From: a virus
Lineage: Duplodnaviria; Heunggongvirae; Uroviricota; Caudoviricetes
Strand: one strand, 5' to 3'
IMG/VR virus record: IMGVR_UViG_2563366948_000001
Coordinates: 1 to 18,745 of that record
Length of the DNA stretch: 18,745 bases
Below the pieces are notes generated by a model. It saw only the letters and a program-made list of their open reading frames with translations, was not told where the DNA came from and made no database searches. This document shows, in pieces, positions 4,897-18,120 of this stretch. The translations under genes were made by a program, and so were the position numbers. The first letter of the stretch is position 1, and each line of letters begins with the position of its first letter.

Positions 4897-5054
4897 ACAG
4901 CCCCCCCCCGTTTATTATTTATCTCCTCAGCCAGCCGCTGTGCTTTCAGGGGATTTCGGATAACAGAAAGGCCGGGAAATACCCAGCCTCGCTTTGTAAC
5001 GGAGTAGACGAAAGTGATTGCGCCTACCCGGATATTATCGTGAGGATGCGTCAT
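4869..5054 (-). CDS. Lambda Orf60a-like protein
   Basis: Track ORF to 5060; the ATG at 5054 overlaps the exo stop (ATGA) and gives 61 aa [19 protein letters not shown]... Confidence 0.65.
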
Positions 5055-5731
5055 CGCCATTGCTCCCCAAATACAAAACCAATTTCAGCCAGTGCCTCGT
5101 CCATTTTTTCGATGAACTCCGGCACCATCTCGTCAAAACTCGCCATGTACTTTTCATCCCGCTCAACCACGACATAATGCAGTCCTTCACGCTTCATACG
5201 CGGGTCATAGTTGGCAAAGTACCAGGCATCTTTTCGCGTCACCCACATGCTGTACTGCACCTGGGCCATGTAAGCCGACTTTATGGCCTCGAAACCACCG
5301 AGCCGGAATTTCATGAAATCCCGGGAGGTAAACGGGCATTTCAGCTCAAGGCCATTGCCGTCACTGCATAAACCATCGGGAGAGCAGGCGGTGCGCATAC
5401 TTTCGTCGCGATAGATGATCGGGGATTCAATAACATTTACGCCGGAAGTGAACTCAAACAGGGTTCTGGCGTCGTTCTCGTACTGTTTTCCCCAGGCCAG
5501 CGCTTTAGCGTTAACTTCCGGAGCCACACCGGTGCAAACCTCAGCTAGCAGGGTGTGGAAGTAGGACATTTTCATGTCAGGCCACTTCTTTCCTGATCGG
5601 GGCTTTGCTATCACGTTGTGAACTTCTGAAGCGGTGATGACGCCGAGCCGTAATTTGTGCCATGCATCATCCCCCTGTTCGACAGCTCTCACGTCGATCC
5701 CGGTACGCTGCAGGATAATGTCCGGTGTCAT
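5051..5731 (-). CDS. exo: Lambda exonuclease (Red-alpha)
   Basis: 226 aa [65 protein letters not shown]..., recognised as lambda Exo; AAGGTGG Shine-Dalgarno. Confidence 0.95.
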
Positions 5732-7042: not shown

Positions 7043-7537
7043 ATGAGAAAATTTATTTTAGCCTTTGTTATAAGTGCCTCGTTTACAGCAAATGCTGGTG
7101 TAGAGAAGTTAGGGCCGTGGATAACAAAGTCTGAGATAAATAAAATGACTGACCAGACTGACTTTGTGGCTCTTAATTTATCACCAGATTCATATAACAA
7201 AGCAGGTACTGATCGTGCAACTTCACTGGTGTTGCGTTGTAGTGATAACAAAACAGATGCCTATTTATCATTCAATGATTATATGGGTTCGGACAACCCA
7301 AGAATTACAGTGCGGTTAGATGGCGGAAAGCCGGTCAAGAGTGTTTGGGGAGGTGGGGAAGGCGGTGATTCTGCATTTGCTCCACAACCAATACAATTTA
7401 TAAAGACCTTGGCTAAGCATAAAAAAGCTATTTTTGGGTTTGAACCTTATGGATCAACTATGCAAGTAGTTGAGTTTGACTTGTCTGAGATTGATAAGGT
7501 TGTGGAAAAAATTTCACAGTCTTGCAATTGGAAATGA
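7043..7537 (+). CDS. Secreted or periplasmic protein of unknown function (moron)
   Basis: 164 aa with signal peptide MRKFILAFVISASFTANA and AxA cleavage motif; strong AAGGAGA Shine-Dalgarno 8 nt upstream; AT-rich codon usage unlike flanking lambda DNA; own terminator. Confidence 0.7.
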   Translation: MRKFILAFVISASFTANAGVEKLGPWITKSEINKMTDQTDFVALNLSPDSYNKAGTDRATSLVLRCSDNKTDAYLSFNDYMGSDNPRITVRLDGGKPVKSVWGGGEGGDSAFAPQPIQFIKTLAKHKKAIFGFEPYGSTMQVVEFDLSEIDKVVEKISQSCNWK

Positions 7538-7554
7538 CAAAAAAATTTCATATG

Positions 7555-7580
7555 AACCCAGTTGGCGCTGGGTTTTTTAT
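7555..7580 (+). terminator. Intrinsic terminator of the secreted-protein gene
   Basis: AACCCAG-TTGGCG-CTGGGTT hairpin followed by TTTTTTATTT, 18 nt after the stop codon. Confidence 0.7.
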
Positions 7581-8174
7581 TTCAGTAGCCAATAATGCAT
7601 TCAAAATCTCTTACTTGAGAAACGGCCTATTTGAGATTTCAGTCGTGGCAGGATGATCAGTTGATTCGAGTATTGACGCATTTGCGTTCGGAGCGATTAC
7701 AGTAGATTGTAAATAATAATGAGAAACACATAGCCACATAGCCACCCCGTGGTATTGAAACCATATAATGTTGGATTTGAAAACAGATCTTTTCCCATGT
7801 ATTAATAACTACATCCCCGCGAGTAATTCAAAAAGGAGGGCCCAATTTTGTCCGAGTTTTTGTATTCCCCCGCATGCCGCTGCGGAGCACTACATCTGAG
7901 TGTCTGACTAGGGGATAAAATTAGACTGGATAGTGAGAAGAAAGTGGCGCGCTAGGCTGTGCCGAGTGCTACCAGTACACCTTGGGGGTGTGCAGCTTTC
8001 GCCGAGACTGTAGTGGGTATCGGTTAATGCACGAAAAACCGAGAGGTCAGACAACCAATTTGCCGTAGGATTGTTTCCGGTGCGATACCGGTCTACTAAC
8101 TGAAAGCAATGCGAAAAAGCATAAACTCGGTCCTTCAGTCGCCCTACACACTATTTACTAAGAAGGGCTGAAGC

Positions 8175-8375
8175 ATGGATACAATTATTACATGGATGGG
8201 AGATCGTCTGTTGGGGGGGACACAAAAATCCGATCTGCGGCAGATGGCGATCACTGGATTAACTTCCGCGATTTGTTCAACAATTTTGTACACTGAAAAA
8301 TTAAAACATGGTGAGCCTATTAACCCAAACGAAGAAGAAAAACTTTATAGGCTTTGGTATGAAGGAAACGCTTGA
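8175..8375 (+). CDS. Small hypothetical protein (66 aa)
   Basis: ORF MDTIITWMGDRLLGG... with GAAGGG Shine-Dalgarno-like motif upstream; no recognisable family. Confidence 0.4.
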   Translation: MDTIITWMGDRLLGGTQKSDLRQMAITGLTSAICSTILYTEKLKHGEPINPNEEEKLYRLWYEGNA

Positions 8376-8581
8376 AAGAATAAAGCACAATTAAAACCTT
8401 TGATTTGCGATAATCAACTTGCCATAATTAAGTAATCGGAGCCTGAACAACTCCGGTGACTTCTGCGCTAAACGGGGACGTTTATGCGCACATACAATCC
8501 AACCTCTCTTCTCCATTCACAGATGCAGAAATGCACCTGCGATATTTTGCATCCAGCGTTTGATCTCTGCGGAGGTGAAGC

Positions 8582-9037
8582 GTGAACCTCCCACAAGATG
8601 GTATCAAATTGCATCGCGGTAACTTCACCGCTATCGGTCGGCAGATCCAGCCTTATCTGGAGGACGGCAAATGCTTTCGTATGGTGCTTAAACCGTGGCG
8701 CGAGAGACGCAGTCTTTCCCAGAATGCACTCAGCCACATGTGGTACAGCGAAATCAGTGAATACCTCATCAGCAGGGGTAAAACGTTCGCCACTCCAGCT
8801 TGGGTAAAAGATGCTCTCAAACACACTTATCTCGGTTATGAAACCAAAGAACTGGTTGATGTCGTAACCGGTGAAATCACCACCATTCAGTCATTACGTC
8901 ATACCTCCAATCTTGATACCGGAGAGATGTATGTCTTCCTGTGTAAGGTTGAAGCCTGGGCGATGAATATTGGCTGCCACCTGACTATTCCGCAGAGCTG
9001 CGAGTTCCAGCTGCTGCGCGACAAGCAGGAGGCGTAA
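8582..9037 (+). CDS. ybcN: NinB-family recombination protein (DLP12 YbcN-like)
   Basis: 151 aa, GTG start with GGAGG Shine-Dalgarno; sequence recognised as YbcN/NinB family ([13 protein letters not shown] motif). Confidence 0.8.
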
Positions 9038-10643: not shown

Positions 10644-11726
10644 TTAGAACTGGTAAACCATACCTACAGCAACGATATCATCGGTAGCAACGCCAGATGC
10701 TTTCGTGAAATCGCTCTTATCAATCAGGTTGATTTTGTAATCAACAAAAGTGGACATATTTTTGTTGAAGTAATAGGTTGCACCTACATCAATATATTCA
10801 ACCAGGTCCTGATCACCCCACGCACCCAAGTCTTTTCCTTTAGATTGCAGGTAAGCAACGGACGGACGCAGACCGAAGTCGAACTGATATTGTGCAACTA
10901 CTTCGAAGTTTTGTGCTTTGTTGGCAATATGGTTATTACCAAAAACAGTCATGTTCTGGGTTTCAGAATAGGTGGTAGCCAGATAGATGTTGTTCGCATC
11001 ATATTTCAGACCAGCTGCCCATACTTCAGCATTTTGACCAGATGCATTCAGGCTGTTGTTACCGTAGATAACCTGATTATTAGTGCGGTCAGATTTAGCA
11101 TAGGTTGCACCTACACCGAATCCTTCATACTCATAAGTAGTGGAGAAACCGAAACCATCACCATTAGCTTCAGTTACGTCAGTGCGGTCATTTTTACCCT
11201 GATACTGAGCAGCAAAGTTCAGACCATCAACCAGACCAAAGAAGTCGTTGTTACGATAAGTTGCAACACCAGTGGTGCGACCAGTCATGAACACATCTGT
11301 TTGGGTCCAGGTATCGCCACCGAATTCTGGCAGAACGTCAGTCCACGCACCGATGTCGTATGCTACACCGTAGTTACGGCCGTAATCGATTGAGCCGTAG
11401 TCACCGAATTTCAGGCCTGCAAATGCAAGACGGGTTTTGTCTTTGGAGGAACCTTGAGATTCAGCGCGGTTGCCTTTGAATTCATATTCCCACTGACCGA
11501 AACCAGTCAGTTGATCGTTGATTTGGGTTTCACCTTTGAAGCCAAGACGGGCATAAGTAGTATCACCATCATCTGCATCATTAGAGGAGAAGTAGTGCTT
11601 AGCATTAACTTTCCCGTACAGATCCAGCTTGTTACTGTCTTTATTATAAATTTCAGCTGCCTGAGCAGACATCGCCATCAGTACTGATGCAGCTACAGCA
11701 GAAATTGCCACTGTTAATTTTTTCAT
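10644..11726 (-). CDS. nmpC: Phage-encoded general porin (OmpC/OmpF family; NmpC/Lc-like), apparently intact
   Basis: 360 aa with signal peptide [23 protein letters not shown], porin N-terminus [16 protein letters not shown] and C-terminal ...VYQF; sits between Q and the lysis genes on the opposite strand. Confidence 0.9.
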
Positions 11727-12154
11727 CGTGAGCCCTTTTTTTTGAACTATTATTAAAAAATGATGTCACTGCGCGATAAATATTCATCTAATCAATGTGA
11801 TTATTTCAAGATGTAAGTTTTGGTTTCTCGTTTGATTTGTGAAGTAGATCTCTATTTTTATCTGAACTTTTTTCTATCGAATCCTATTCATAGCTCTTGG
11901 CTGAATAAAAATAAATCTATTAGCCAATTTATATTAACGGCTGTTATTTATAAGTGCTCTATAATTTGAAGGTTCAATTTAAATCGGCTAAAAATAACAC
12001 TGGAAATTATTTGTTGGTTATTTGTTGAGATTTGCTTATGTATTTGTAGTGGTGTTTTCAATACTCGGTAGCATTCTCGCAAATATCATTTAGTGGTTTA
12101 CGTACGTAAAAAATTGGTTATGCTGTTAAGAGTGGTTACTTCGTCACACAGCTT
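11727..12154 (-). promoter_or_regulatory. AT-rich porin upstream region (promoter or regulator-binding candidate)
   Basis: ~430 bp strongly AT-rich with phased A/T tracts immediately upstream of the porin start; no ORF. Confidence 0.35.
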
Positions 12155-12187
12155 AAACCCGCCGTCGAGCGGGTTTTTCCATTTTTT
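12155..12187 (+). terminator. Candidate intrinsic terminator upstream of the lysis cassette
   Basis: AAACCCGC-CGTCGA-GCGGGTTT hairpin followed by TTCCATTTTTT; position computed from the holin ATG at 12300. Confidence 0.45.
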
Positions 12188-12299
12188 GAGTCTCGATATT
12201 AGCTGATAACCCAATACCTGAGTTATTCACTGACTCCGAGTCTGTTACGTTTCGTAGTATTCCCTCAATTTACACCCGCTTTGTCTGCGAGGTGGGGTT

Positions 12300-16353: not shown

Positions 16354-17539
16354 GGTGAATGGTAAGGCGCTTTCAGCGGATATAACACTGACGCCGAAAG
16401 ATATTGGTACGCTTAACTCAACAACAATGTCATTCAGCGGTGGTGCTGGTTGGTTCAAATTAGCAACGGTAACCATGCCACAGGCGAGTTCTGTTGTTTC
16501 AATTACGTTGATTGGTGGCGCGGGATTTAACGTGGGGTCACCTCAACAGGCAGGTATATCTGAACTTGTTTTGCGTGCAGGTAATGGTAATCCGAAGGGG
16601 ATTACTGGTGCTTTATGGCAGCGCACATCGACAGGGTTTACAAATTTTGCCTGGGTCAATACATCTGGTGATACTTACGATATTTACGTTGCAATCGGAA
16701 ATTATGCGACTGGTGTAAATATTCAATGGGATTATACCAGTAATGCCAGCGTGACGATTCATACGTCACCAGCATATTCTGCTAATAAGCCGGAAGGGTT
16801 AACGGACGGTACAGTTTATTCACTCTATACGCCATCAGAGCAGTTTTATCCGCCTGGCGCACCAATCCCGTGGCCATCAGATACCGTTCCGTCTGGCTAT
16901 GCCCTGATGCAAGGGCAGACTTTTGACAAATCTGCATACCCGAAACTTGCAGCCGCTTATCCGTCAGGCGTGATCCCTGATATGCGTGGCTGGACGATTA
17001 AGGGCAAACCCGCCAGTGGTCGTGCCGTATTGTCTCAGGAACAGGACGGCATTAAATCGCACACCCACAGCGCCAGCGCATCCAGTACGGATTTGGGGAC
17101 GAAAAACACATCGTCGTTTGATTACGGAACCAAATCCACGAATAACACCGGGGCGCATACCCATAGTATTAGCGGGACTGCAAATAGTGCCGGTGCGCAC
17201 CAACACAAGAGTTCCGGTGCATTTGGTGGCACGAACACGAGCATTTTCCCTAATGGTTATACCGCGATTTCAAATCTAAGCGCGGGGATTATGAGCACAA
17301 CAAGCGGTAGTGGCCAGACTCGTAATGCAGGGAAGACATCATCAGATGGTGCTCATACCCACTCGCTGTCCGGCACTGCTGCAAGCGCAGGCGCACACGC
17401 ACATACTGTCGGTATTGGTGCTCATACGCACTCCGTTGCGATTGGCTCACATGGACACACCATCACCGTTAACGCTGCTGGTAACGCGGAAAACACCGTC
17501 AAAAACATCGCATTTAACTATATTGTGAGGCTTGCATAA
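16339..17539 (+). pseudogene. stf: Side tail fibre Stf, C-terminal ~400 codons only
   Basis: Open frame continuous with track ORF 16307-17539; contains tail-fibre-type His-rich repeats (GAHTHS, GAHQHK, GAHAHT, GSHGHT); no credible start; abuts truncated lom. Confidence 0.75.
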
Positions 17540-18120
17540 TGGCATTCAGAATGAGTGAACAAGCACGGACCATAAAAATTTATAATCTGCTGGCCGGAAC
17601 TAATGAATTTATTGGTGAAGGTGACGCATATATTCCGCCTCATACAGGTCTGCCAGCAAACAGTACCGATATTGCACCGCCAGATATTCCGGCTGGCTTC
17701 GTGGCTGTTTTCAACAGTGATGAGTCATCGTGGCATCTCGTTGAAGATCATCGGGGTAAAACGGTTTATGACGTGGCTTCCGGCGATGCGTTATTTATTT
17801 CTGAACTCGGTCCGTTACCGGAAAATGTTACCTGGTTATCGCCGGGAGGGGAGTTTCAGAAGTGGAACGGCACAGCCTGGGTGAAGGATACGGAAGCAGA
17901 AAAACTGTTCCGGATCCGGGAGGCGGAAGAAACAAAAAACAGCCTGATGCAGGTAGCCAGTGAGCATATAGCGCCGCTTCAGGATGCTGTGGATCTGGAA
18001 ATCGCAACGGAGGAAGAAACCTTGTTGCTGGAAGCCTGGAAAAAGTATCGGGTGTTGCTGAACCGTGTTGATACATCAACTGCACCGGATATTGAATGGC
18101 CAGTAGCACCTATAGGGTAA
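17539..18120 (+). CDS. tfa: Tail fibre assembly protein Tfa
   Basis: 193 aa [54 protein letters not shown]..., recognised as lambda Tfa; start overlaps stf stop. Confidence 0.9.

Follow-up and report, generated by a model that had tools for sequence, protein, structure and literature searches.

The window, by which we mean the whole stretch of 18,745 nucleotides that was analysed, is a DLP12/lambda-like E. coli prophage, with a layout that was taken from annotated, near-identical relatives. Its genes and the features that border the region of interest are as follows.

1-1284, integrase
between the integrase and the CI-like repressor, exo/bet/gam
5051-5731, CI-like repressor
up to 6726, replication genes
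7043-7537, VasI/TagO-like open reading frame (ORF) of 164 aa, with a match to Pfam PF11319
7554 to about 7575-7582, + strand, intrinsic terminator of the 164-aa VasI/TagO-like gene, from the terminator scan; it lies outside the RNA described below
8175-8375, + strand, ORF of 66 aa
8449-8561, + strand, ninB-upstream box
8582-9037, ninB/ybcN
after ninB/ybcN, Q, a porin gene, lysis genes and the terminase

An earlier note on this DNA had singled out 7583-8174 as free of ORFs, and this is confirmed: no frame of 60 aa or more lies inside the interval on either strand, and the longest ORFs that overlap it are 41-49 aa. This gap by itself is no evidence of anything, because any non-coding DNA lacks long ORFs by chance. 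The above-chance signal in the stretch is the conservation and covariation of 7813-8143, and the interval as a whole is heterogeneous, consisting of a gene remnant, a promoter-like region, an RNA and a short linker to the next ORF.

7583-7616, junction
7619-7705, + strand, remnant of a P22AR C-terminal-domain (antirepressor) gene, comprising its last 28 codons and stop (tblastn)
7727-7745, tandem duplication of 8 bp, CACATAGC in 2.4 copies (Tandem Repeats Finder)
7777-7806, + strand, putative sigma-70-like promoter, with a -35 hexamer TTGAAA (7777-7782), a 17-nt spacer and a -10 hexamer TATTAA (7800-7805)
7813-8143, + strand, structured RNA core of 331 nt, whose 16 helices form two domains (alignments, pair counts and covariance model R1)
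8144-8174, + strand, linker of 31 nt with the Shine-Dalgarno sequence AAGAAGGG (8160-8167), at the place where most lineages have a terminator

Three alternatives had been offered for the interval, namely a regulatory RNA, a long leader for the 66-aa ORF and a decayed gene. Each of them fits a different part of it, and that interpretation was partly supported overall. Gene decay accounts for 7619-7705, which aligns with the intact gene of E. coli FORC_041 at 64% identity (E 4e-11, tblastn), but not for the core, which has no conserved reading frame. The smaller observations fared well. The tandem repeat is real, the unit described before (ATAGCCAC in two copies at 7730-7745) being the same as the one given above; the 8-bp duplication is lineage-specific, because relatives have a single copy, and the ATAGCCAC repeat is incidental. 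The GC-rich palindrome CCGGTGCGATACCGG, for which no position had been given, is located at 8077-8091 and corresponds to the tip hairpin P11a of the RNA. The terminator scan likewise found no intrinsic terminator within 7583-8174, the nearest one on the + strand being that of the upstream gene.

Comparison of the window with Klebsiella phages and IMG/VR contigs placed the edges of the core precisely. Near-invariance begins exactly at ATCCCCGCGAG (7813) and stops at CAGTCGCC (8143), identity jumping at ATCCCC and dropping past GTCGCC, while the flanks on both sides are unalignable. The core also has a GC content of about 50%, compared to 35-42% in the flanks. We collected 32 distinct versions of it from E. 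coli, Klebsiella phages, IMG/VR and metagenomes, which are 71-100% identical and all 329-331 nt long. Full-length members score 261-404 bits with covariance model R1. Four different exact seeds retrieved essentially the same set of about 65 contigs from IMG/VR, and the more divergent members L187 (71% identical, 261 bits) and L189 (291 bits) were reached only via a neighbouring protein and a redesigned seed.

The distribution of the element is patchy. By Megablast, 181 of 5426 complete E. coli genomes have a match to the stretch; for about 100 of these 181, the homology begins only at 7617 and is preceded by a different gene, a fragment with the P22AR C-terminal domain that belongs to a cryptic prophage of DLP12 type. 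The core itself occurs in 159 of the 5426 genomes, in one copy each, and is annotated in none of them. Two Klebsiella phages match 7813-8148 only, at 78-79% identity, and the RNA is carried by two cultured phages, Escherichia phage IdasGreatGrand (PP925829) and Turner (PP925837). The hosts are E. coli and Klebsiella and probably also Enterobacter, given that an Enterobacter asburiae protein is identical to the one that the L089-type cassette carries as cargo. A search of plasmids found no copy of the core. A lone 19-mer match was seen in a contig of an Aquibacillus (Bacillaceae) genome, and we take it as chance. Among 80 sister prophages in IMG/VR with NinB 95-99% identical, 14 have the RNA, and the other 66 lack even weak matches to it and have many other accessory genes at the same site. 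Where the element is present, its position is constant, between the replication genes and ninB.

A structure model was built by hand from comparisons among lineages, with RNAalifold as a start. The final model contains 96 pairs in 16 helices, of which the following are the principal parts.

7813-7916, + strand, 5' domain, in which P1 encloses the P2/P2a/P2b arm and P3
7813-7818 with 7911-7916, + strand, P1
7819-7873, + strand, P2/P2a/P2b arm
7878-7902, + strand, P3 hairpin, with compensatory changes at 2 pairs
7924-8140, + strand, multi-branched 3' domain, closed by P4
7924-7929 with 8135-8140, + strand, P4
7940-7945 with 7995-8000, + strand, P5, with compensatory changes in 3 pairs
7946-7973, + strand, P6, with compensatory changes in 3 pairs
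7975-7993, + strand, P7, with compensatory changes in 5 pairs
8001-8024, + strand, P8, with compensatory changes in 5 pairs
8038-8043 with 8126-8131, + strand, P9, with a compensatory change in 1 pair
8061-8108, + strand, P11/P11a, with compensatory changes in 2 pairs of P11a
8077-8091, + strand, tip hairpin P11a, CCGGTGCGATACCGG, one pair of which is A-U in 14, U-A in 11 and C-G in 6 sequences
8109-8122, + strand, P12
7888-7893 with 8010-8015, + strand, kissing loop of 6 bp between the P3 loop (CACUAC) and the P8 loop (GUAGUG)
7903-7909 with 8045-8051, + strand, pseudoknot of 7 bp between UCUGACU, which lies between P3 and the 3' strand of P1, and GGUCAGA

The share of paired cells was 97.1% over 23 sequences, 96.9% over 30 and 96.7% over the 31 distinct sequences of the final set. 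In slid controls, in which the 3' partners were moved by 1-3 columns, this share fell to 35-45% (36-42% for the 31-sequence set). Compensatory changes on both sides were found in 26 pairs versus 4-8 in the slid controls. This covariation comes from about 8-9 lineages, and many sequences in the set of 31 are recombinant mixtures of shared segments. On four of the five measures, which included pairing, the covariation score and the counts of double changes, none of 500 column shuffles did as well as the real alignment. G.U cells numbered 216 and A.C cells 4, per-cell counts that overstate the number of independent events because of this recombination, and the reverse strand would be only 86% paired. 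The excess of G.U over A.C therefore places the RNA on the + strand, running left to right like the early-right operon. P1, P2 and P12 say little for or against the fold, because they are almost invariant.

The contacts between the domains were found by a search for further conserved complementarity. The kissing loop is paired in 30 of 30 sequences, with one pair occurring as U-A in 15, A-U in 10 and C-G in 5, and another as A-U in 20 and G-C in 10. The pseudoknot is also paired in all 30, and is invariant except for a switch between C-G and U.G. In the divergent member L187, the fold is preserved by 16 double changes relative to the window, among which are one from C-G to U-A in the pseudoknot and two in the kissing loop, where L187 contributes another compensatory pair. 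A 3-bp hairpin considered earlier, P10, was replaced by the pseudoknot in the model; L187 and L189 each break one P10 pair. Folding of the single sequence gave an energy no better than that of shuffles (z -0.36), and minimum free energy (MFE) z-scores were non-significant on both strands and hence uninformative. The covariation analysis that had been proposed as a check on the interval was decisive, and indicates that 7813-8143 is a conserved, compactly folded, RNA-level element on the + strand.

The core does not resemble a coding sequence or a known RNA. Direct inspection of the alignments revealed that its substitutions follow pairing and not codons. The small ORFs that it contains, a 19-aa ORF with a UUG start after AAGGAGG and ATG ORFs of 13-14 aa, were rejected, because their frames shift, a stop codon interrupts the best candidate frame in three E. 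coli variants and the substitutions track the pairing; one lineage has a 2-nt deletion. We also rejected the idea that AAGGAGG is a ribosome decoy or an accessible Shine-Dalgarno sequence, as it more likely lies in an internal loop between P2a and P2b. A search with Rfam 15 (4227 covariance models, among them GOLLD, ROOL, C4, DicF, STnc100 and the known riboswitches and ribozymes), the other check that had been suggested, returned no family match in 7813-8143. At the gathering threshold, the sole match in the whole window was IS009 at 17882-18080, and at E<=10 over 7450-8450 there were three weak matches, all outside the core. ARAGORN found no tRNA or tmRNA gene in the window, and 7813-8143 contains no tandem repeats or iterons. 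Annotation and ORF clustering revealed no reverse transcriptase gene in any context within flanks of about +/-2.5-9 kb, which speaks against a retron or DRT noncoding RNA (ncRNA). Complementarity of the RNA to the rest of the window did not rise above chance. A literature search by sequence strings and by topic, with most subscription journals outside its reach, found no description of this RNA. We rate it as a new family within a known general kind, the prophage-borne structured ncRNAs, with a real chance of a new type of function.

Upstream of the core, promoter-like hexamers keep their positions in all lineages, despite diverging surroundings. The -35 elements are TTGAAA, TTGAAT or TTGTAT, the spacers are 17-18 nt and the -10 elements are TATTAA, TTTAAT or TTAAAT, and in every lineage the -10-like hexamer ends 6-7 nt ahead of the first paired A. 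We infer a promoter with a start at A7813, and also expression in lysogens. A strict promoter scan leaves 7777-7806 unflagged, because it accepts only -10 hexamers with A in the second and T in the sixth position, which excludes this one. Alternatively, the RNA could be made only within the long early-right transcript and not from a promoter of its own. At the other end, the core is followed in most lineages, after 6-9 nt, by an intrinsic terminator that directly abuts P4. Two unrelated types occur, ACCGCC-loop-GGCGGT followed by T7-8, which the scan flagged in L061, and GCCACC-GAAA-GGTGG followed by T6, in L011. The terminator is degenerate in L040, and absent in L089, L189, L024, L039 and the E. 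coli lineage, including the window, where transcription would run on into the truncated 66-aa ORF.

That ORF is an allele of a 118-aa phage protein that was frameshifted by a deletion of 134 bp between two TTGGTATGAAG repeats; the protein belongs to a small family represented by phrog_8527 and phrog_12412. In every lineage the distance from the core to the next ORF is 15-113 nt, and at least six unrelated families are represented among these downstream genes across lineages: the 118-aa protein, a 178-aa protein with transmembrane (TM) segments, proteins of 183, 177 and 95 aa, and DUF1367, an ordinary nin gene that has its own predicted promoter. The first five of these cargo proteins (118, 178, 183, 177 and 95 aa) gave no match in Pfam, NCBIfam or PADLOC, and their PHROGs are families of unknown function only. 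Two of them have homologues that occupy the same genomic site in the absence of the RNA, the 178-aa TM protein in L188 and the 177-aa protein in Enterobacter quasiroggenkampii, Scandinavium and Serratia. An obligate RNA-protein pair, of a toxin-antitoxin or defence-like kind with swappable effectors, was entertained and is weakened by the occurrence of cargo proteins without the RNA. In three loci (L089, L189 and L190), the RNA and one ORF are bracketed by direct repeats of the ninB-upstream box, 157-190 bp long and 90-92% identical, of which the second copy lies upstream of the RNA; the box matches 8449-8561 of the window at 71% identity. Such repeats are as expected for a cassette inserted by recombination.

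We propose that 7813-8143 is probably a self-contained accessory RNA gene, or 'RNA moron', of about 331 nt, from a family outside Rfam. P1 closes its 5' domain and P4 its multi-branched 3' domain, with the kissing loop and the pseudoknot tying the two together. The module belongs to the nin region of lambdoid prophages of the Enterobacteriaceae, and travels with its promoter-like sequence and mostly with its own terminator. As is characteristic of phage morons, there are terminators, presence or absence among close relatives (14 of 80), alternative cargoes at the site, and a promoter suggested by the conserved hexamers. At the level of sequence comparison, the element is shown to be dispensable for the phage and to move as a unit, and the same comparisons establish its conservation, boundaries, strand, secondary and tertiary pairing, mobility between gene contexts and accessory distribution. 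The most tentative part of our proposal concerns mode of action. The long invariant sequences of junctions and loops, together with the tertiary contacts, suggest that the RNA might act as a folded molecule that binds a protein or small ligand, and not as a simple base-pairing small RNA (sRNA).

A cis-acting leader, riboswitch-like or an attenuator, in which the fold would sense a ligand or factor and set terminator read-through or use of the ribosome-binding site (RBS) of the downstream gene, deserves the most serious attention among the alternatives, and we regard it as rather unlikely. The order of promoter, 331-nt fold, terminator, and Shine-Dalgarno sequence with an ORF within about 15-55 nt, mostly with no intervening promoter, is that of a leader, and the 'expression platform' would vary, with two terminator types or, in the window, an RBS straight after the fold. 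The window and at least two other lineages have no terminator and an ORF 31-53 nt downstream; the direct repeats bracket exactly the RNA and one ORF in three loci, in the manner of a cassette; and the RNA and the TM-protein gene are still adjacent at 71% RNA and 54% protein identity. Kissing loops and pseudoknots are, moreover, typical features of riboswitch aptamers. However, the downstream genes form no coherent set, an ORF on the same strand is expected anyway since all nin-region genes lie on one strand, and we know of no riboswitch aptamer as large as 331 nt. A conserved antiterminator was not found, the sole candidate, GUCGCC, being mutated in the Klebsiella lineage, and a candidate hairpin in the window that would sequester the Shine-Dalgarno sequence by pairing with 8133-8145 (-13.6 kcal/mol, z -1.39) is non-significant and not conserved in L024. 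The suggestion of a long leader for the 66-aa ORF is physically true of this lineage, whose RNA is followed by the ORF after 31 nt with no terminator between them, but it does not describe the general arrangement: in most lineages the RNA is succeeded by a terminator and then by an unrelated gene. We favour a stand-alone RNA over a leader because of the two kinds of terminator, the unrelated neighbours, one of them with its own promoter, and the homologues of the TM and 177-aa proteins that occupy the same site without the RNA.

A stand-alone RNA could still be a base-pairing regulatory sRNA or its precursor, with a short seed acting on host or phage mRNAs like DicF, IpeX and the Pas sRNAs. 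The moron-like layout, which in most lineages ends in a terminator hairpin with a U-tail, would suit such an RNA, and published work shows that prophage-encoded sRNAs are common in E. coli. Nevertheless, we consider this improbable for an RNA of 331 nt with 16 helices and tertiary contacts, in which nearly all of the conserved nucleotides are tied up in structure; the lack of above-chance complementarity within the window and of any match to an Rfam sRNA family also counts against it. That most conserved nucleotides lie in junctions and tertiary contacts, and not in an exposed seed, is a further reason for favouring the self-contained folded RNA. Of the earlier suggestion of a regulatory RNA, the conserved, structured + strand RNA is strongly supported, and any regulatory role is hypothetical. 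Finally, the stretch might not be an RNA gene at all, and could represent a decayed protein gene, a DNA-level site (an origin, or a site of recombination or packaging) or neutral filler. The first 90 bp or so (7619-7705) are truly a gene remnant, and the single-sequence MFE is unremarkable. For the core, this explanation is very hard to sustain: neither DNA- nor protein-level constraint explains the G.U/A.C asymmetry and the 26 compensatory pairs, the flanks are exchanged but the length stays within 329-331 nt, the candidate frames contain 2-nt indels and a premature stop, and repeats or iterons are absent.

No system in biology has been annotated more intensively than E. coli and its lambdoid phages, yet this RNA is named in no database, and about 3% of complete E. 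coli genomes carry it, at 331 nt and with an architecture of ribozyme or riboswitch grade. RNAs with many invariant junction nucleotides and tertiary contacts between domains have, as a rule, specific biochemical functions. It is conceivable, as a tentative suggestion, that the RNA represents a new class of compact, medium-to-large phage RNA that binds a specific ligand, protein or nucleic acid, with novel biochemistry. If so, it would be an RNA-only factor in lysogenic conversion, immunity or counter-defence, or a sensor that gates interchangeable downstream genes. Given its location in an accessory hot spot of the prophage, beside orphan genes, it may represent RNA-based lysogenic conversion, competition between phages or gene control. 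The two cultured phages and the many sequenced strains make the RNA experimentally tractable.

Several known systems share part of this arrangement. The put sites of phage HK022 are essential sequences of about 70 nt that come immediately after pL and pR. The put RNAs, which we compared by description only, are likewise structured phage RNAs in a rightward early operon, upstream of terminators; the RNA of the window, in contrast, is 331 nt long and is located beyond the replication genes, and 66 of 80 sister prophages lack it. A put-like essential role in antitermination is unlikely because the element is missing from most sister prophages. The order of promoter, ncRNA, intrinsic terminator and small protein gene is also that of type III (ToxIN-like) toxin-antitoxin systems, but the window RNA has no tandem repeats, and its protein partners vary, occur without the RNA and have no toxin match in PADLOC or Pfam. 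Lysine and cobalamin riboswitches and T-box leaders are similar in their compact multi-helix fold with a kissing loop and pseudoknot, and in being located 5' of an ORF, with a terminator or directly an RBS in between. They differ in that the genes downstream of the window RNA are mutually unrelated and also occur without it, and in that this RNA has no conserved antiterminator, is bigger than known aptamers and has no match among the Rfam models.

Closer parallels are found among phage-borne RNA genes and large ncRNAs. DicF, IpeX, AgvB/AsxR, PasA-D and STnc100 are, like the element described here, accessory RNA genes of lambdoid prophages, patchy across strains, with a sigma-70-like promoter and mostly an intrinsic terminator. 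These E. coli prophage sRNAs are, however, about 50-170 nt long, with simple hairpins and an exposed seed, whereas the window RNA, at 331 nt and with 16 helices, leaves few conserved nucleotides single-stranded and is not recognised by any of their Rfam models. The Rfam models of GOLLD, ROOL, OLE and raiA also give no match, and the window RNA is about half the size of these RNAs or less, and occupies a fixed nin-region site in lambdoid prophages of the Enterobacteriaceae, not one beside tRNAs. Nonetheless, it resembles these RNAs as a large, intricate ncRNA that is associated with phages or prophages and has a predicted transcription unit of its own, and in which many junction nucleotides are invariant and distant parts are joined by tertiary pairing. 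GOLLD and ROOL are, without homology to it, the closest in kind to the RNA of the window.

At three loci that carry other versions of the RNA (L089, L189 and L190), the cassette made up of the RNA and a single downstream ORF is flanked by direct repeats of 157–190 bp that are 90–92% identical. Because these flanking repeats are copies of the sequence immediately 5' of ninB, they suggest that recombination at this ninB-upstream box could have led to insertion or exchange of the cassette. The window has the downstream repeat copy only (8449–8561).

The 66-aa ORF downstream of the RNA (8175–8375) is an allele of a 118-aa protein, shortened by a 134-bp deletion between two TTGGTATGAAG direct repeats, with a frameshift. 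The 66-aa and 118-aa alleles are both common enough for each to have its own PHROG family, with separate entries as families 8527 and 12412, and the protein family that they form is very small. Genes directly after the RNA at other loci (L061, L086, L089, L040 and related loci) had no Pfam, NCBIfam or PADLOC match, and these orphans include the following:

3' of the RNA: 178-aa protein, hydrophobic N- and C-terminal segments
3' of the RNA: 183-aa protein, R-x4-H motif
3' of the RNA: 177-aa protein, PIN-like IIIDSN start
3' of the RNA: 95-aa protein, orphan

The two hydrophobic segments of the 178-aa protein probably span the membrane, and, judged by eye alone, the orphan proteins resemble small defence or exclusion effectors.

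On the other side of the RNA lies a further gene:

7043–7582: 164-aa protein gene and terminator, weak VasI/TagO (T6SS-associated) Pfam match

The Pfam match, at 26.7 bits, barely exceeds the curated cut-off of 26.5. The gene has a strong terminator of its own and is linked with the RNA in 13 of the 15 sister prophages (close relatives by NinB identity) that have it; it looks like a separate moron directly 5' of the RNA. In the putative promoter region, an imperfect 17-nt direct repeat (TGGTATTGAAACCATAT / TGGATTTGAAAACAGAT; 7750–7788) supplies a second copy of the -35 region, and between the two copies stands a perfect TATAAT (7764–7769). Transcription may also, or instead, begin about 35 nt 5' of the core.

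Within the RNA itself (7813–8143), columns 20–27 hold an almost invariant AAGGAGG, a perfect Shine-Dalgarno sequence. The 19-codon UUG frame 3' of this sequence is not conserved, and the AAGGAGG may instead form a tandem G.A motif or serve as a binding site; in the modelled structure, the motif is more likely placed in the P2a/P2b internal loop.

Elsewhere in the window, the Rfam family IS009 matched at full length at 17882–18080 on the + strand (221 bits, E 1e-54), within a 193-aa ORF (17539–18120) of the head-gene region, and this "sRNA" family may be no more than protein-coding sequence that is conserved among lambdoid phages. Another interval was the following:

10644–12299, porin on the - strand: OmpC/NmpC-like porin gene, then a gap free of long ORFs

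This gap, between the porin and holin genes, is about 570 bp long. Rfam matched nothing in the interval, the DLP12 equivalent of which is the neighbourhood of the IpeX RNA.
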